This document shows, one piece after another, positions 1,498-61,381 of a stretch of 64,000 nucleotides of DNA. Origin of the DNA: Okamejei kenojei (lineage: Eukaryota); NCBI GenBank assembly GCA_035221665.1, contig CM069142.1, forward strand, positions 30,938,001 through 31,002,000, read 5' to 3'. The translations under genes were made by a program, and so were the position numbers. The notes under the pieces are model-generated. The model was not told the DNA's origin. It ran no database searches and was given only the letters and a program-made list of their open reading frames with translations. Position 1 is the stretch's first letter, and each line of letters starts with the position of its first letter.

Positions 1498-3685
1498 CAG
1501 TGCCCTCCATAATGTTTGGGACAAAGATCCATCATTTATTTATTTGCCTCTGTACTCCACAATTTGAGATTTGTAATAGGAAAAGAAAAATACATATGGT
1601 TAAAGTGCACATTGTCAGATTTTAATAAAGGGTATTTTTATACATTTTAGTTTCACCATGTAGAAATTACAGCTGTGTTTACACATAGTCCCCCATTTCA
1701 GGGCATCATAATGTTTGCGACACAGCAAAGTCATGTCATTAAAAGTAGTCATGTTTAATATTTTGTTGCATATCCTTTGCATGCAATGACTGCTTGAAGT
1801 CTGCGATTCATGGACATCGCCAGTTGCTGGGTGTCTTCTCTGGTGATGCGCTGCCAGGCCTGTATTGCAGCCATCTTTGGCGTATGCATATTTTGGAGGC
1901 TAGTCCCTTTCAGTTTTCTCTTCAGCAAATAAAAGGCATGCTCAATTGGGTTCAGATAGGGTGATTGACTTGGCCACTCAAGAATTGACCATTTTTTAGC
2001 TTTGAAAAACACCTTTGTTGCTTTAGCAGTATGTTTGCGATCATTGCCTTGCTGTAGAATGAACCACCGGCCAATGGGTTTTGAGGCATTTGTTTGAACC
2101 TGAGCAGATAGGACGTGTCTATACACTTCAGAATTTATTATGCCATCAGCAGTTATATCAATGAAAATAAGTGAGCCAGTACCTTCAGCAGCCATACATG
2201 TCCAGGCCATAACACTCCTGCCACCATGTTTCACAGGTGAGGTGGTATGCTTTGGATCTTGGGCAGTTCCTTCTCTCCGCCGTACTTTGCCCTTGCCATC
2301 ACTCTGATATAAGTTAATCTTTGTCTCCTCCGTCCTCAAGATTTTTTTCCAGAACTGCGGTTGGCCTTTTAAGTACTTCTTGGCAAACCGTAACGTGGCC
2401 ATCCTATATTTGTGGCTAACCAGTGGTTTGCATCTTGCAGTCTCGCCACTGTATTTCTGTTCAAAAAGTTTTCTGCGGACAGTGGTCATTGACAAATCCA
2501 CACCTGACTCCAGAAGAGTGTTTCTGATCTATCGGACAGGTGTTTGGGGATTTTTTTTTACTATAGAGAGAATTCTTCTGTCATCAGCTGTGGAGGTCCT
2601 CCTTTGCCTGCCAGTCCCTTTGCGATTAGTAAGCACCAGTGCTCTTATTCTTCTGAATTATGTTCCAAACAGTTGATTTTGGCAAGCCCAAGGTTTAGCT
2701 GATGTCTCTAACAGTTTTTGCAGTTTCTTGTTTCTCAGTCTCATAATGGCTTCTTTGACTTTCATTGGCACAACTGGTCCTCATGTTGATAAACAGCAAT
2801 AAAAGTTTCCAAAGGTGATGGAAAGACTGGAGGAAAGACTAGGTACTGAGAGTTCTGTTATACCTGCATTCAGGTCTCCAAATCTGAGGATGGACATTAT
2901 TGCCATAGAGGGAGTGCAGAGAAGGTTCACCAGACTGATTCCTGGGATGTCAGGACTGTCTTATGAAGAAAGACTGGATAGACTCGGTTTATACTCTCTG
3001 GAATTTAGGAGATTGAGAGGGGATCTTATAGAAACTTACAAAATTCTTAAGGGGTTGGACAGGCTAGATGCAGGAAGATTGTTCCCGATGTTGGGGAAGT
3101 CCAGGACAAGGGGTCACAGCTTAAGGATAAGGGGGAAATCCTTTAAGACCGAGATGAGAAAGACTTTTTTCACACAGAGAGTGGTGAGTCTCTGGAACTC
3201 TCTGCCACAGAGGGTAGTTGAGGCCAGTTCATTGGCTATATTTAAGAGTGAGTTGGATGTGGCCCTTGTGGCTAGGGGGATCAGAGGGTATGGAGAGAAG
3301 GCAGGTACGGGATACTGAGTTGGATGATCAGCCATGATCATATTGAATGGCGGTGCAGGCTCGAAGGGCTGAATGGCCTACTCCTGCACCTAATTTCTAT
3401 GTTTCTATGTAGGAGGCAATTAAACACACCTGAGCAATTACAAGTGCCTGTGAAGACATGTGTCCCAAACATTATGGTGCCCTGAAATGGGAGGACTATG
3501 TATAAACACATCTGTCATTTCTACATAGTGAAACCAAAATGTATAAAAATACCCTTTAATAAAATATGACAATGTGCATTTTAACCACATGTGATTTTTT
3601 TTTCTATTACAAATCTCAAATTATGGAGTACAGAGGCAAATAAAGAAATGATGTGTCTTTGTCTCAAACATTATGGAGGGCACAG
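1498..3685 (-). mobile_element. Tc1-like DNA transposon (IR/DR type), defective
   Basis: TIRs cagtgccctccataatgtttgggaca / tgtctcaaacattatggagggcacag, about 220 bp with internal direct repeats; transposase ORF 1755..2501 (WPSQSPYLNPIE; catalytic Asp residues altered); interrupted by a CR1. Confidence 0.93.
2871..3410 (+). mobile_element. CR1/HER-type LINE 3' fragment nested in the Tc1
   Basis: RT C-terminus VQRRFTRLIPGM...FFTQRVVSLWNSLP; (tttctatg)n tail; the empty site is visible in the second copy of this Tc1 family (tgcatg|aaggagg, ~61141). Confidence 0.92.
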
Positions 3686-9209: not shown

Positions 9210-10588
9210 TGCAACCAATTGCCTTCAGAAGTCACCTAATTAGTAAATAGAGTCCACTTGTGTGTAATCTAATCTCAGTATAAATACAGCTGTTCTGTGA
9301 AGGCCTCAGAGGTTTGTTAGAGAACATTAGTGAACAAACAATGTTCCTTGGGAATCATGAAGCCCATGGAACACACCAGACAGGTCAGGGATGAAGTTGT
9401 GGAGAAGTTTAAAGCAGGGTTAGGTTATTAAAAAAAATCCCAAGCTTTGAACATCTCACGGAGCACTGTTCAATCCATCATCCGAAAATGGAAAGAGTAT
9501 GGCACAACTGCAAACCTACCAAGACATGGCCGTCCACCTAAACTGACAGGCCGGGCAAGGAGAGCATTGATCAGAGAAGCAGCCAAGAGGCCCATGGTAA
9601 CTCTGGAGGAGCTGCAGAGATCCACAGCTCAGGTGGGAGATTCTGTCCACAGGACAACTATTGCACTCCACAAATCGGGTCTTTATGGAAGAGTGGCAAG
9701 AAGAAAGCCATTGTTGAAACAAAGCCATAAGAAGTCCCGTTTGCAGTTTGCCACAAGCTATGTGGGGGACACAGCAAACATGTGGAGGAAGGTACTCTGG
9801 TCTGATGAGACCAAAATTGAAGTTTTTGGCATAAATGCAAAACGCTATGTGTGGTGGAAAACTAACACTGCACATCACCCTGAACGCACCATTCCCACTG
9901 TGAAACATGGTGGTGGCAGCATCATGCTGTGGGGATGCTTTTCTTCAGGAGGGACAGGGAAGCTGGTAATAGTTGATGGGAAGATGGATGGAGCCAAATA
10001 CAGGGCAATCTTGGAAGAAAACCTGTTAGAGTCTGCAAAAGACTTGAGAATGGGGTGGAGGTTCACCTTCCAGCAGGACAACAACCCTAAACATACAGCC
10101 AGAGCTACAATGGAATGGTTTAGATCAAAGCATATTCATGTGTTAGAATGGCCCAGTAAAAGTCCAGACCTAAATCCAATTGAGAATCTCTGGCAAGACT
10201 TGACAATTGCTGTTCACAGACGCTCTCCATCAAATCCGGCTGAGCTTGAGCTATTTTGCAAAGAAGAATGGGCAAAAATTTCAGTCTCTGGATGTGCAAA
10301 GCGGGTAGAGACATACCCCAAAAGACTTGCAGCTGTAATTGCAGCGAAAGGTGGTTCTACAAAGTATTGACTCAGGGGGGCTGAATACTTTTGCACGCCA
10401 CACTTTTCAGTTTTTTATTTGTAATAAAATTTGGAAACCATGTATCATATTCCTTCCACATCACAATTATGCACCACTTTGTGTTGGTCTATCACATAAA
10501 ATCCCAATAAAATACATTTACGTTTGTGGTTGTAACGTGACAAAATATGGAAAAGTTCAAGGGGTATGAATACTTTGGCAAGCCACTG
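9210..10588 (+). mobile_element. Tc1 transposon (second family), left TIR missing, near-intact transposase
   Basis: ATG at 9357 with a stop/frameshift near 9429, then ORF 9447..10370 with HTH/GRPP, WSDE, QQDN and SPDLNPIE; right end ...ggcaagccactg followed by TA. Confidence 0.93.
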
Positions 10589-15201: not shown

Positions 15202-16501
15202 ATTTTCCAAGCCCATCGTTCTGCTGCAGCTCTCATCAGTGACATTCTAAATTTGACCACACAAAGTTTGATTTCCTTTATCTGGGCTATTTGGGATAAT
15301 TTTTTGCATACTTGTTGGATGTTTTGTCATTGACTTAAAGGTTTAATTCCAGAGACACCATCCGATTCAAAAGATGTAGTTGGTGTAATAATATTAACAC
15401 CAGTGCTGGTTCTCGTGTTTCTTGAGTTTATCAGTTTGTGCATTTAGCCCCAAAGAGATAAGTGTCTAATGTAGGCTAGAACTTCTATGCAGTATGAAAG
15501 AATGCTATCTTTCAGGAAGGGTTCTATGCCAAACCTGTTGTCTTGTGAGATCCTTCGCATCCATGCAACTTCCAGGCAACCTTACAATAATTATCCTTTA
15601 ACATCTAAAACAGATGATCTGATCATTTATTTCAGTGCTATTTGTGGGAGCATTTTATGGACGAACTTGTTGCTGTATTTTCTACACACAAAGATTACTA
15701 CCACTTTATTAACATGTCTATTATCAACATCAATGGCTTCTATTACTTGCTCCTAATTGAACAGGGTCTGATGAACCTCCTTGAACAGCTATTTTTGTGA
15801 AGTTGAGTTAGATGGAGATTTTCAACATTTAGCCCCAACGATGATGAAGGGATGGTGTTTATACTTATCAGAGTAAATCAAAGCTGTAGCTTCTGATGTT
15901 GTTGTGTGATTACGGCCCTTGTAGAGATAAACTGCTGGGAATTGCCATCATTTTTTGAAATGGTAAATGCTGTAACTATGGGAGTTGGGTGGGAGGGGAA
16001 TGCGCGGTGGTTAATGGGATGCTAGTTAAGTATATTATTTTGATCCAAGATATGTTTTTGGAATTAAGCTCATCCAGATGAGTGTGTTTTTATTATACTC
16101 CTTACTTGTGCTTTGTAGTTGGTAGGGAATAGGAATCAGATTTGCGCTCTGATGGCCTTCTTGTCAAAGCACTGACTCAATTTGCAGACTTGGCACATTT
16201 AACACACCATCTCTCTGTTGCCAAGGTTATTTATACAGGCCATTCCTAGAAAACTGTTGGTATCGTGATTTTTTCATTAAGCTGTGTCGCCTTTGTATGA
16301 GACAAGGAATGAGTTAATAAAAAAAAATGTTTTAACATTATTTCCATGAGGGAAAATTTTATTTCATATCTTGGATTTTTTAGTCACAATTTGTGAATTC
16401 TGTGAGAGTGAATTTCTAAACGCACGGGTCGTCTTTGTATGTTTATTCGAAATGACCTTAATATCCAGTGATGTTGATTAACACGTGTGCTTTCTTTGTA
16501 G

Positions 16502-16635
16502 TCAGACCCAAAGGAGTCCTCATATGTTCTATCGGCATGATTTGATTAACCAGCTTCAACACAATCATTCGTTGGTTACCTTGGTAGCTGAAAACCTATC
16601 TGCATATATGGAGAACATACGGCAGTTTCATAAAG
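16502..16635 (+). CDS. USP9X: USP9X exon [44 protein letters not shown]
   Basis: Within ORF 16485..16670; ttgtag|T ... AAAG|gtaaa; 134 nt. Confidence 0.95.
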
Positions 16636-16667
16636 GTAAAGATAATAATGTTGTGGAAATAAAATAT

Positions 16668-17779
16668 TAATAGAATATTGACTGGCCTTGAGGGGGATAC
16701 GACATATATTGCCTGAAGTAGATTCATATTGCCCGAGTCGAAGACGAGGGCAATATGGATCTAGTGAGGGCAATATATGTCGTATCCCCCGAAAGAGGAC
16801 AGTCAATATTGTTATTATTACCCATATCAGACATCTAGAGGAAAATCTCAACATCTCAGCTCGGCGGACTTCCACGTAAAAATTTAGCCAAAATGGACGC
16901 CAAAGTCTTCCTGTCTGCCGTTTGAATATCGACATCTAGACCCTTCTCATCAAATATTCTTGAATATACTGCTTGTTTCGTTCCTTCTTCGTGTTCTGCG
17001 CGTCTTTGTTTTGTAAAATCTCGTCAAATTGCTGTTCGTCAAAAGTCGTGAACCTCTTCTTGCCATTTTGCTCGAGCTTGCCACATTTTCGACCAGGGGA
17101 ATATAAGACTATATTTACCGCTGTTTTAACACTCCATCGTTTCAAGTGTTCTGCTGGCGAAGGTCAATTTTGTAAAAGCATTTGTTTTGTAATAATAAAT
17201 ATTAAAACCCTGTGGCACTCAAAAACGAAGGGAATAAATTTTGTAAAGCATAGCTCAGATGTGTGGATATGGGTAATAATAATATTATTCTATTGATATG
17301 GGTAATAATAAATATTATTACCCATATCACACATCTGAGCTATGCTTTTACAAAATTGTATTCCTTCGTTTTGAGTGCCAGCAGGGTTAACAGGGGAATA
17401 TTTTCTTGTATTCCCCTTTCTTGCGAACGCCTATGGACTTTACGTGTTAAAACAGCGGTAAATATAGTCTTATATTCCCCTGGTCTCACATCCGGGAACT
17501 TGGCAATGTGACGCTGCGTGGGAAATTTAGAATTTGTTCTCGACAAAACAAGCAAAATGGCAGCCTCCTGCGAGAAGAGGTTCGCGACTTTTGACAGAAG
17601 ATTTTCCTCTAGATGTCTGATATGGGTAATAATAACAATATTGACTGTCCTCTTTCGGGGGATATGACATATATTGCCCTCACTAGATCCATATTGCCCT
17701 CGTCTTCGACTCGGGCAATATGAATCTACTTCAGGCAATATATGTCGTATCCCCCTCAAGGCCAGTCAATATTCTATTA
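16668..17779. mobile_element. Palindromic non-autonomous element, probably Crypton-derived
   Basis: ~180-bp near-perfect terminal inverted arms, each itself a hairpin centred on gcccgagtcgaagacgagggc; inner inverted blocks; minus-strand peptide KRFTTFDEQQFDEILQNKDAQNTKK. Confidence 0.65.
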
Positions 17780-18234
17780 TTGTACCTTGGTTTTAGGTTT
17801 TTCACTGTATCTCGGTACACGTGAAAATGATCAACCAATACCAATATCACTGGGTTAAATCTAATTTGTGAAGAACTGGATTCCCATATCAAAGATTGAA
17901 TTCTGCAATTGAGTGTTAATTTGGGTAAAATTTGTGATAGAAAAATAAAATACAGAATTCCACATTCATAAAATAAGAACACGTGTGGAAGATTATTTTT
18001 CATCAAACCAGAGATTGATTGAGTTTGAGCTCCAGTTTGATTAAGTTTGAGCTCAAGAAATCTGCTACATTGCAACCTGAACTGCAGTACATTGGTGGAA
18101 GCAAGTGGTCAAGAAACTGAACAAAGAATGCTGAGAAGAACTGCACAATACTGTTGACTTTCGATTTTAAATTATATATTTTTATTTGTAGTGTTTCAAG
18201 TACAAACTTTAAATGTAATGTAATAGCAAGAAAC

Positions 18235-18642
18235 TGCAGGTGTGGGTTTACCAAAGAAAGACACAAAATTCTGGAGTAACTGCAGTCGGGACCCAAAATG
18301 TCACCTGTCCAGACATTCTGCCTGACCCGCTGAGTTACTCCAGCATTTTGTCTTTCTCGAGGTCAAATATAATGTTGGGCATAAAAATTGAGATATGAAT
18401 GAAGAAATGTAACTGTGTGTAGAAAAGAACTGTAGGTGCTGGTTTAAATCAAAGGTAAACACAAAATGCTGGAGTGACAGCAGGATAGGCAGCATCTCTG
18501 GAGAGAAGGAATGCTTGACATTTTGGGTCGAGACCCTTAGACTAGAGTCTGAAGAAGGGTCTCGACCCGAAACATCACGCATTCTTTCTCTCCAGAGATG
18601 CTGCCTGTCCTGCTGAGTTACTGCAGTATTTTGTGTCTACCC
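18235..18642. repeat. Cluster of inverted Penelope-derived pLTR repeats
   Basis: acaaaatgctggag...gggtcgagaccc / gggtctcgacccgaaac...attttgtgtctac in inverted orientation. Confidence 0.75.
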
Positions 18643-21600: not shown

Positions 21601-22145
21601 TGTCCAGTTAAAATTCACTTTAACTTGTGGAAAATAGACTATTTATAATTTGACGTCTCATAAATAAACTAGTAACAAATTATTGAATTTGTGGTTATAA
21701 AAGTGTTTGCAAAAATGAGTATCAAATTATACATGGTAGAAATAAATTGTGTCCTTTCATAAGTGGCTCCAGAGTGTTCTAATCCTTGGGTTAACTGTGC
21801 ATGTATCATTGTACCTAATGAAGACCAATCACTGTGTGGCTGCTGCTGTATATAATCAAATTCTGAGTTTCCCTGGTTTAACCAAAGCCTGATTTGTCTT
21901 TGTATTGACTTGATTTCTCAAAGTCTAACATGTATTAATGGATTCACCATGTGCTATTATCAAACATACATTGATCCCGAGATGTTTTTATGTTAATTTT
22001 TGTTAAAATATTAGTAAAATAAATACATTTTACTTGGTTTTGGCATTCAAATGAATGAGATTTGATGGTATTTCCTCTTGCAATCTTTTTTAATTGCGAA
22101 TCCAGTGAATTTCCTGTGCATTAATCGAGATTGTGCATCTTACAG

Positions 22146-45138: not shown

Positions 45139-45276
45139 NNNNNNNNNNNNNNNNNNNNNNNNNNNNNNNNNNNNNNNNNNNNNNNNNNNNNNNNNNNNNN
45201 NNNNNNNNNNNNNNNNNNNNNNNNNNNNNNNNNNNNNNNNNNNNNNNNNNNNNNNNNNNNNNNNNNNNNNNNNNNN
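45139..45276. other. Assembly gap (left boundary of the CACNG block)
   Basis: N run. Confidence 1.
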
Positions 45277-45300: not shown

Positions 45301-45454
45301 TTCCATCCCAATTCCGAATTCCGATTTTTTGTCTCAATATTCCGAGAAAAAAAATCGGAAAAAAAAAAACACACAGAAACTTTCTATGTGTTTTTTTTTT
45401 CCGATTTTTTTTTCTCGGAATATTGAGACAAAAAAAATCGGAATTGGGATGGAA
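45301..45454. repeat. ~155-bp palindrome (MITE-like hairpin)
   Basis: ttccatcccaattccg...gtctcaatattccgagaaa / tttctcggaatattgagac...cggaattgggatggaa. Confidence 0.85.
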
Positions 45455-45842: not shown

Positions 45843-46056
45843 ATGGGGGGCGGCGTGGAGCGCGGCGTGCAGATGTTGCTGACCACGGTAGGGGCGTTCG
45901 GTGCCTTCAGCTTGATGACCATCGCCGTGGGCACCGACTACTGGCTGTACTCGCGGGGCGTGTGCCGGAGTAAGGGCGGCGGGGACAACGACACGGTCCA
46001 CAAGAACGAGGAGGTGATGACCCACTCGGGGCTCTGGAGGACCTGCTGTCTGGAAG
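45843..46056 (+). CDS. CACNG2: First coding exon of a type-I TARP / calcium-channel gamma subunit (CACNG2/stargazin-like; CACNG3 not excluded)
   Basis: [41 protein letters not shown]...[18 protein letters not shown](G), then a phase-1 donor G|gtagg; GC-rich upstream; no further exons seen. Confidence 0.8.
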
Positions 46057-48906: not shown

Positions 48907-49094
48907 GGGTTACACAAAATGCTGGAGAAACTCAGCGGGTGCAGCAGCATCTAAGGAGCGAAGGAGATAGGCGACGTTTTGGGTCGAGACCCTTCTTCAG
49001 ACTGAGAAGGGTCTCGACCCGAAACGTCGCCTATCTCCTTCGCTCCTTAGATGCTGCTGCACCCGCTGAGTTTCTCCAGCATTTTGTGTAACCC
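48907..49094. repeat. Near-perfect inverted pair of Penelope pLTR ends
   Basis: gggttacacaaaatgctgg...gggtcgagacccttct / agaagggtctcgaccc...ccagcattttgtgtaaccc. Confidence 0.88.
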
Positions 49095-49257: not shown

Positions 49258-49420
49258 NNNNNNNNNNNNNNNNNNNNNNNNNNNNNNNNNNNNNNNNNNN
49301 NNNNNNNNNNNNNNNNNNNNNNNNNNNNNNNNNNNNNNNNNNNNNNNNNNNNNNNNNNNNNNNNNNNNNNNNNNNNNNNNNNNNNNNNNNNNNNNNNNNN
49401 NNNNNNNNNNNNNNNNNNNN
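49258..49420. other. Assembly gap (right boundary of the CACNG block)
   Basis: N run. Confidence 1.
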
Positions 49421-59656: not shown

Positions 59657-61381
59657 CAGTGCCCTCCATAATGTTTGGAACAAAGACCCATCATTTATTT
59701 GTTAAAGAAGGAACTGCAGATGCTGGAGAATCTTGGGTACACAAAAGGCTGGAGAAACTCAGCGGGTGCAGCAGCATCTAAGGAGCGAAGGAGATAGGCG
59801 ACGTTTCGGGTCGAGACCCTTATTTATTTGGCTCTGTACTCCACAATTTGAGATTTGTAATGGAAAACATCACATGTTAAAGTACTCATAGTCAGATTTT
59901 AATAAGGGCTATTTTTATACATTTTGGTTTCACCATGTAAAAATTACATAGTCCCGTCCCGCCCCCCAACCCCCCCCCCCCTCATTTCAGGGCACCATGT
60001 TGTTTGGGACATAGCAATATCATGTGAATGAAAGTAGTCATGTTTAGTATTTTGTTGCATATCTTTTGCATGCAATGACTGCTTGAAGTCTGCGATTCAT
60101 GGACATCACCAATTGCTGGGTGTCGTCTCTGATGATCTTCTGCCAGGCCTGTATTGCAGCCATCTGTAGCTTATACTTGTTGTGGGGGTTAGTCCCTTTC
60201 AGCTTTCTCTTCAGCATATAAAAGGCATGCTCAATTGGGTTCAGATCGGGCGATTGACTTGGCCACTCAAGAATTAACCATTTTTTAGTTTTGAAAAACT
60301 CCTTAGTTGCTTTAGCAGTATGTTTGGGACCATTGTCCAGCTGTAGAATGAACCGCCGGCCAATGTGTTTTGAGGCATTTGTTTGAACTTGAGCAGATAG
60401 GATGTGTCTATACACGTCAGAATTCTTTATGCCTCTACCATCAGCAGTTGTATCATCAATGAAGATAAGTGAGCCAGTACCTTCAGCAGCCATACATGCC
60501 CAGGCCATAACACCCCCACCACCGTGTTTCACAGATGAGGTGGTATACTTTGGATCTTGGACAATTCCTTCTCTACTCCATACTTTGCTTTTGCCATCAC
60601 TCTGATATAAGCTAATATTTGTCTCATCTGTCCACAAGGCCTTTTACCAGAACTGTGGTTGCTCTTTAAAGTACTTCTTGGCAATCTAACCTGGCCATCT
60701 ATTTTTGTGGCTATCCATTGGTTTGCATCTTGCAGTGTAGCATCTGTATTTCTGTTCATGAAGTCTTCTGCGGACAGTGGTCATTGACAAATCCACACCA
60801 GACTCCTGAAGAGTGTTTCTGATCTGTCGGACAGATGTTTTGGGATTTTTCTTTATTATAGAGAGAATTCTTCTGTCATCTGCTGTGGAGGCCTTCCTTG
60901 GCCTGCCAGTCCATTTGTGAGCTCACCAGTGCTCTCTTTCTTCTTAATGATGTTCCAAACAGTTGATTTTGGTAAGCCAAAGATTTGGCTGATGTCTCTA
61001 ACAGTTTTATTCGTGTTTCTCAGTCTCATCATGGCTTCTTTGACTTTAATTGGCACAACTTTGGTCCTCATGTTGATAAACAGCAATAAAAGTTTCCAAA
61101 GATGTGAGGAAAGACTACGTGCTGAGAGCTCTCTTTTACCTGCATGAAGGAGGCAATTAAACACACCTGAGCAATTACAAACACCTGTGAAGCCATGTTA
61201 CCCAAACATTATGGTGCCCTGAAATGGTGGACCAAAAATGTATACAAATGGCCTTTTACAAAATAAGACAATGTGCACTTTAACCACATCTGACTTTTTC
61301 TATTACAAATCTCAAATTGTGGAGTGCAGTGGCAAATAAATAAATCTTGGGTCTTTGTCCCAAACATTATGGAGGGCACTG
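59657..61381 (-). mobile_element. Tc1 element of the same family as 1498-3685, full length, TA TSD, frameshifted transposase
   Basis: TA|cagtgccctccataatg ... cattatggagggcactg|TA; ORFs 60044..60637 (WTDET, QLDN, SPDLNPIE) and 60856..61164; Penelope piece inserted in the left TIR (59701-59820). Confidence 0.94.

Follow-up and report, generated by a model that had tools for sequence, protein, structure and literature searches.

A model in which Cryptons move as circles was reportedly put forward by Goodwin et al. in 2003. The same model is described in passages of PMC3212892 and PMC13565253, and the latter states there that the mechanism of Crypton movement is without experimental demonstration. 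According to passages of PMC3212892, PMC13465315, and PMC9977147, Cryptons have a tyrosine recombinase, and their presumed route of movement is as circles, by way of a short shared core. For CryptonF-1_cRei of Chlamydomonas, both clean excision and a rising copy number were observed (PMC9977147, in the part concerned). Passages of PMC3212892 and PMC5753468 describe abundant nonautonomous CryptonA families in medaka (CryptonA-1N1_OL and CryptonA-1N2_OL) and abundant families in salmon (Crypton-N1_SSa plus CryptonA-N2_SSa), respectively, so that the statement of an earlier note on this DNA that vertebrate Cryptons are mostly relics is incomplete; human Eulor5 and Eulor6 are given as fossils in the same part of PMC5753468. 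Kojima and Jurka reported no terminal repeats in animal Cryptons, and passages of their paper list only fragments and one unanalyzed intact frame for cartilaginous fishes (PMC3212892). Our literature search found no description of mirrors or head-to-head pairs of Cryptons, nor of hairpin ends, which terminal alignments in Repbase, Dfam, figures, or supplements may already show, and found no young Crypton family in sharks or rays (cartilaginous fishes). The word "hairpin" has no occurrence in the main text of PMC3212892, PMC5753468, or PMC13465315.

We analyzed a palindrome in an intron of USP9X, using the window, which is the whole stretch of DNA under analysis (64 kb). The results indicate that the palindrome probably consists of two members of one young CryptonA family, each internally deleted, placed head to head. 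The adjacent USP9X coding exon (16502-16635, plus strand) was identified by Pfam (PF25010, E = 6e-9) and by a tblastn exon map against bird USP9X (16500-16634), and it had unique contigs in the sequencing runs X1, X3, and X13. A USP9X exon was 86% identical to that of birds, 83 to 85% to that of amphibians, and mostly 77 to 82% to that of bony fishes, which, together with repeats of a kind found in skates and rays, suggests a cartilaginous fish as the host. By tblastn, the USP9X exons keep their order on both sides of the palindrome. The splice donor GT of the exon is at 16636-16637 and the next USP9X exon is near 22145, giving an intron of about 5.5 kb. The palindrome arm begins at +33, in agreement with the 33 bases in the earlier note.

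The geometry reported in the note was recovered. The inverted arms, 16668-16848 and 17599-17779, are 181 nt long with a single mismatch at 16782/17665 (180/181). Each arm also forms a hairpin, centered on 16731-16751 in the left arm, with a z score of -13.3, and none of 200 shuffled sequences folded equally well. The inner block 17093-17132 matches 17444-17483 at 40 of 40 positions, the alignment of 17205-17285 to 17311-17390 has 75 matching positions, a single mismatch, and 9 gaps of one base each, and the repeated motif gatatgggtaataata is present at 17266, 17295, and 17619. A direct repeat of the short Crypton type had been overlooked when the note reported no clear target site duplication: TATTA is found at 16665-16669 (plus strand; the left copy, a putative crossover core) and again at 17775-17779. 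Since TATTA occurs at 107 places in the window, the repeat is weak evidence alone. No further copy of the element was found within the 64-kb window.

The note had also pointed to a minus-strand peptide resembling Crypton/DUF3504 recombinases. The peptide is present as described, and it matched one protein among four candidates, P0001 (493 amino acids; E = 6.6e-7). Relic pieces 84 to 92% identical to P0001 were found in both monomers in opposite directions. None of the four relic peptides matched Pfam (0/4), and the relics are thus linked to the recombinase by the homologue search. P0001 itself passes the DUF3504 cutoff (38 versus 29.7 bits) with weak matches to QRICH1 and phage integrase, as do P0002, P0003, and P0014 for the DUF3504 cutoff, while GCR1_C, DDE, reverse transcriptase, and RNase H were absent among the four Pfam families listed for P0001. 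In an alignment of 19 relatives (P0001 and 18 others), R189/R190, H312, and Y347 are invariant and R315 and H338 are nearly so. The parent recombinase carries the R-H-R-Y catalytic residues, with the motif suggesting which arginine is catalytic. There were 60 further relatives of P0001, of which the nearest named ones were sea urchin KIAA1958-like proteins with 57 to 59% identity. The predicted model of P0001, which is of low confidence (mean pLDDT 63), matched QRICH1 first and Cre next, with the integron integrase at rank 32.

The P0001 match, the DUF3504 score, and the relics in both monomers bear out the Crypton/DUF3504 origin claimed for the peptide, and the monomers are almost certainly of the CryptonA type. 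Homologues of the peptide are recombinases, and no connection to DDE came up. A miniature inverted-repeat element (MITE) of a DDE transposon was also considered and rejected, as each arm is the 3' end of one of two monomers, and these carry the coding relic of a tyrosine recombinase. Because the relics lie on opposite strands, both halves are read as deleted CryptonA-type copies whose 5' ends meet centrally. The relics in both halves read outward from the center, in keeping with the head-to-head layout of the note. P0001 and P0002 are intact recombinases very close to the relics, and named relatives reach only 57 to 59% (sea urchin). Horizontal transfer would be a possibility if P0001 and P0002 come from hosts not closely related to this animal.

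The right monomer (R; 17313-17781, plus strand) was defined from the sequence and from family contigs as a complete nonautonomous CryptonA copy of 469 bp with TATTATT at both ends. It consists of a 5' end starting with TATTATTACCC, a coding stub, a 24-nt mirror, and a hairpin of about 150 nt. The recombinase relic at 17521-17595 (plus strand) covers residues 2 to 26 and is identical to P0001 at 21 of 25 positions. The mirror of the 5' terminus is at 17611-17634 (plus strand; 96% identity), with a P value of 0.003, which is the minimum for 300 shuffles. On the noncoding strand, the predicted fold of the 3'-terminal hairpin at 17632-17779 (minus strand) contains a GAA loop together with G·A pairs. 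At 17499-17502, just 5' of the coding stub, family contigs have an 11-nt insertion or short tandem repeats.

The left monomer (L; 16668-17312, minus strand) is a nonautonomous CryptonA copy with its 3' end toward the exon, as delimited by the relics, the L-R alignment, and the flank contigs. It has a copy of AAATATTA, an 8-bp direct repeat, at each boundary (16662-16669 and 17310-17317); the sequence is present at 11 places in the window. Its 3'-terminal hairpin, read on the noncoding strand, is at 16668-16815 (plus strand) with the GAA loop at 16740-16742, and one family contig begins exactly at 16668, the hairpin end. Tandem G·A/A·G pairs share one axis, at 16735-36/16746-47, 16715-16/16766-67, and 16690-91/16791-92. 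The opposite strand has T·C mismatches where the noncoding strand has G·A pairs, and the predicted folding energy was -54.8 kcal/mol for the noncoding strand and -47.9 kcal/mol for its complement. Adjoining the hairpin, the mirror of the 5' terminus at 16813-16836 (plus strand) is identical to 17313-17336 at 23 of 24 positions. The frameshifted recombinase relic at 16856-17068 (minus strand) covers residues ~14 to 88, with pieces matching P0001 at 21/22, 20/23, and 6/6 positions. The 5' region and center (17061-17312, minus strand) form a gap-riddled, partly doubled image of 17311-17562 in the alignment and probably contain untrue letters; alignment pieces 2 to 4 of this region scored far above 300 shuffles against R, and their differences were nearly all gaps. 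R has a deletion of its own, and L holds coding sequence absent from R.

Four runs (X1, X3, X6, and X13) were compared with 16250-17598, a stretch holding one arm. The two same-species DNA runs came from two studies and had flank depths of 7.42 and 26.2, and the window itself may derive from the better of them. For the stub present only in L, single contigs reached 146 to 194 times the flank depth, alike in the two studies, which is a rough measure. For the R parts 17345-17417, 17415-17490, and 17481-17541, contigs with no other letters had 296 to 531 times the flank depth. These depths agreed between the two runs. Summed depths at two places were ~4,400 to 8,500 times the flank, which are not copy numbers and merely hint at thousands. 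The family is young, abundant, and interspersed in multiple copies. The recent activity suggested in the note therefore holds for the family, with its near-identical copies at high depth. It does not hold for arm identity as a date of the locus, because hundreds of copies are near identical.

In X6, 5' contigs begin at 17314 and one loose end carries a separate 5' flank. Because the 5' contigs start as monomers and one has its own flank, the monomer is the unit of the family and each arm is simply the 3' end of a separate copy, so the single nested element of the note was not sustained. A third deletion derivative was also seen in X6, in which 17533 is joined to 16927. X13, from a second species, has a more diverged form whose loose ends stay in the coding frame past 16856, a hint only of an autonomous copy. 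Its exon contig extends 287 letters past 16639 with no listed arm match, which weakly hints that the second species has no insertion in this USP9X intron.

It may be asked whether the 1.1-kb dimer is itself mobile, with the arms as the long terminal inverted repeats of a Crypton derivative. In its favor, the TATTA direct repeat flanks the whole, both outer joints resemble regular 3' joints, the arms are nearly identical (180/181), and a related locus, L005, has inverted ends. Against this, 5' ends branch at 17314, one with its own flank, which is the behavior of monomers. A tyrosine recombinase acting on two inverted 3' ends would produce inversion, not excision. We consider the mobile dimer improbable and prefer two separate monomers.

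We then analyzed the inner letters of the palindrome (16850-17312). Where L and R could be aligned, there were 235 matches, 3 mismatches (substitutions), and 32 gaps, and the 5' end is present two to three times in pieces within the center. Within the L stub, small indels set the contigs apart from the window at about five places, including 16878, ~16948-16966, and 16982; high-depth records of the stub had 0 to 1 other letters besides indels, and at 16982 all depth in X1, X3, and X6 contradicts the window. Positions 17150-17284 had no cover in any of the four runs and no joint was seen at the center; such a hole is no proof, and contigs fitting both 5' regions had been placed on one of them. 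Such an excess of gaps over substitutions (32 against 3) is a pattern very unlike ordinary decay. A fold-back of this kind is difficult to sequence, and in nanopore data, reads of inverted duplications drop bases on the second arm (PMC7229812, in the passage concerned). Taken together, the inner part of the left monomer is likely to be mostly long-read error, and because its letters are probably sequencing error, the "nested" center is unreliable. On the other side, contigs drop rare variants, and the L indels could therefore be real. Elsewhere the assembly is clean, as shown by transposon copies with long open frames at 1500-3683, 9432-10370, and 60044-60643. The first of these has inverted ends of ~225 nt, and from their motifs we take all three to be of the Tc1/mariner type. 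Two other fold-backs were seen in the window: one of 189 nt at 48907-49094 (97%), made of a short repeat also found around 18250-18640, in clean assembly near a gap at 49258, and an A/T-run-rich palindrome of 154 nt at 45301-45454 (88%), directly 3' of the N gap at 45139-45276.

On the other hand, both the pair and its scrambled center may be real, having arisen as an inverted duplication by template switching or through a hairpin-capped intermediate and then eroded by slippage. Real palindromes do rearrange at their center, and unstable ones erode in this way. An 8-bp direct repeat bounds L, a fold-back-like end is present in the relative L005, and a single-copy variant can be lost from contigs. 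In addition, both arms share C at 16787, where 59 to 95% of the family depth has T; this shared minority base fits one subfamily, conversion, or polishing alike. However, L has coding sequence missing from R and so is not a copy of R as written, the indels also occur in the unpaired stub and are mostly of one base in short runs, and gaps outnumber substitutions 32 to 3. A real center therefore seems quite unlikely to us, and we favor two monomers with a misread inner left part.

The reality of the pair was examined at its outer junctions. At the left junction, unique flank contigs extend past the boundary by 21 letters in X1 and 24 letters in X3, entering the reversed 3' end with no loose end. 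These contigs fall below the bar for junction bridging, which was 31 letters on both sides, and in the runs examined no record spanned the element or bridged the left junction by 31 letters on each side. The right junction reads as a regular 3' joint in the window sequence, and the inverted flank expected after R from a read fold-back was absent from the window. With regard to the concern raised in the note that the palindrome could be an assembly fold-back, the short-read contigs thus speak for a real joint on the left only. Word shares were 0.65 to 0.70, between the values expected with the right flank (0.77) and without it (0.59). We consider a real pair of monomers at the USP9X site likely.

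In a competing explanation, only the left monomer is real and the right one was added by assembly, gap filling, or polishing from reads of other copies. The inner region is plainly of poor quality, the left junction alone was observed in contigs, the sequence beyond 17779 also fits the 5' flank of a single minus-strand copy, and polishing could give the shared C at 16787. Yet R has its own deletion, an exact match to a separate subfamily, and the full TATTATT core. Moreover, a lone monomer would not explain garbled reads, and the inverted flank expected after R is missing. We regard an added right monomer as unlikely, with slightly more in its favor than a real scrambled center.

If the pair is real, deleting 16670-17317, between the two AAATATTA copies, leaves R with a regular left joint. 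The sequence thus fits R having arrived first and L having then entered its end in the opposite direction, and the reverse order fits as well, the center being compatible with either. Inverted nests occur in relatives, because two were seen: in P0014, an inverted 5' end of this family type is fused into the recombinase gene (~first 70 residues; E = 2e-11), and in L005, an inverted 3' half-hairpin replaces the 5' end, giving 89-bp inverted ends at 998-1086 and 2983-3071.

To compare the end design with that of relatives, we used a metagenome scan, taking the best 80 of 152 recombinase-relative loci (31 to 52% identity); the 80 loci are not independent, since several are from one family, and many of their contigs are short. 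Between R and the 80 loci, DNA similarity gave one weak match (E = 0.09), and being near nil, it leaves only the design to be compared and not the sequence. The strict motif, defined as a stem, a G·A pair, a short stem, and a GNA loop, was found in 6 of the 80 loci, always on the noncoding strand, and in none of 400 base shuffles. Long hairpins were present in 20 of the 80 loci (24 hairpins) and contained 35 two-by-two loops. Of these loops, 22 were G·A/G·A, with 19 on the noncoding strand and 3 on the coding strand. For the mirror test, 13 loci were chosen, 3 were dropped because they had too little upstream DNA, and 1 of the remaining 10 was significant (L056). The best match in L077 fell on the independently defined 5' boundary (P = 0.34), and in the L003/L006/L077 family a mirrored joint is visible by eye. 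A mirror in L062 (P = 0.03) was T rich and was rejected. Nine Rfam matches, all under the gathering score, were set aside as generic hairpin hits. In viral contigs, the hairpin tip had no match and no recombinase relative was found among 33 candidate stretches. Eulor5 and Eulor6 may carry a similar hairpin tip. The contig of L018 (1-100) begins with the outer half of its own 3' hairpin joined to the 5' start and ends in the hairpin loop, and it is possibly a circle or tandem joint of a distant CryptonA.

The same design raises the question of whether the monomers are Helitron2/Helentron-type rolling-circle elements for which the recombinase gene would be cargo. In the layout of Helitron2, too, the terminal 5' repeat has a mirror in subterminal position, upstream of a 3' hairpin (passages of PMC3627910). 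By the Helitron2/Helentron measure, the repeats should be 8 to 15 bp long and 20 to 30 bp from the end, but the mirror here is 24 to 28 nt long and ~145 nt from the end, which does not fit. The recombinase catalytic residues are kept across the 19 relatives, and the L077 element, at ~2 kb with five frames of at least 80 amino acids, has little room beyond the recombinase. Rolling-circle elements are the least probable of the alternatives, and CryptonA monomers remain the preferred reading.

For the host gene, the note had proposed that the pre-mRNA would form long double-stranded RNA. RNA folding agreed with this as a prediction, giving a stem of ~181 bp with -666 kcal/mol over 1,161 nt, and the USP9X donor is outside the predicted stem. 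In X6, which is RNA only by guess, there was no cover on the exon, and three A>G places were not outstanding. Any effect on the splicing or editing of USP9X is speculative. Also inside a USP9X intron and on the same strand (plus), a GC-rich first exon with a PMP22_Claudin match (E = 5e-12) was seen at 45843-46056. It presumably belongs to a CACNG/stargazin-type gene and, lying just 3' of the N gap at 45139-45276, represents either a nested gene or a scaffold misjoin.

How such monomers may move can be proposed from the design of their ends. A full-length copy elsewhere would supply the recombinase, most likely joining both ends at the TATTA(TT) core. The circle would then integrate at a similar AT-rich site, leaving behind a short direct repeat without a true duplication of the target. 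R has TATTATT at its two ends and the outer joints have TATTA; no empty site was seen, and the AT-rich context makes the short-repeat reading weak. When the ends of R were joined in silico, the joint paired with the mirror and lengthened the stem, with -71.2 kcal/mol for the noncoding strand and -64.0 kcal/mol for the coding strand. In the joined form, the joint would thus pair with the mirror and hairpin on the noncoding strand, and the site may be read as folded DNA. One strand would be exchanged and replication would complete the reaction, as in the integron attC sites described in passages of PMC4792948. The pair would most likely have come from one copy entering the end of the other in the opposite direction, as that end would already be a recombinase site.

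A folded single strand as the substrate is a reading that the predicted folds make plausible, and we hold it tentatively. The predicted P0001 model, in which IntI is below Cre, lends the folded-strand step no support. More tentative still is a wider proposal, in which CryptonA elements would recombine as folded single strands in the manner of integrons, with the joined ends and the mirror under the hairpin and the G·A pairs and GAA loop marking the reactive strand. The family would have hundreds to thousands of copies and an intact relative, P0001. The pair would be a product of that chemistry, whether by entry of a copy into the end of a copy or through a hairpin-capped intermediate, and the chemistry could build Cryptons with long inverted ends. 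The locus offers a donor of 469 bp that is complete and has defined ends, a vertebrate family that is young and of high copy number, and a natural intact recombinase, P0001, with 84 to 92% identity to the relics in its N-terminal part. Should the hairpin design prove to be the substrate, this would be a case of a tyrosine recombinase of eukaryotes that acts on single-stranded DNA in folded form, and the published view that terminal repeats are absent from animal Cryptons would need correcting.

Several known systems share part of this design, each compared here through passages of the paper cited. Helitron2 elements also have asymmetric inverted repeats and a 3' hairpin, but the sizes differ several-fold and the relic here is a tyrosine recombinase, not a Rep-helicase (PMC3627910). 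DIRS retrotransposons likewise combine a tyrosine recombinase with an internal stretch complementary to the joined ends (PMC13465315), whereas P0001 is without a reverse transcriptase or RNase H match and a long terminal hairpin lies next to the mirror here. If our reading is right, integron attC sites and IntI would be alike in having an imperfect palindrome, unpaired features on one strand, a tyrosine recombinase, and resolution by replication; the present element differs in being a eukaryotic transposon, in having the site only on the joined ends, and in having tandem G·A pairs in place of single flipped-out bases (PMC4792948). CryptonF-1_cRei also inserts through a short core common to the element end and the target, and its copy number rises despite a recombinase enzyme; it belongs to another Crypton group, and the passages on it mention no hairpin or mirror (PMC9977147). 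Closest are the medaka and salmon CryptonA families, as presented in parts of PMC3212892 and PMC5753468, with which this family shares a DUF3504-type parent without a C-terminal domain, a vertebrate host, the apparent lack of a true target site duplication, and short internally deleted copies that far outnumber the long ones. The absence of terminal repeats in animal Cryptons, which is a reported absence and not a positive criterion, does not extend to this family. Unlike the animal Cryptons in the published passages, this family has, besides a short direct repeat, an asymmetric inverted repeat of 24 nt and a hairpin of 150 nt in each monomer.
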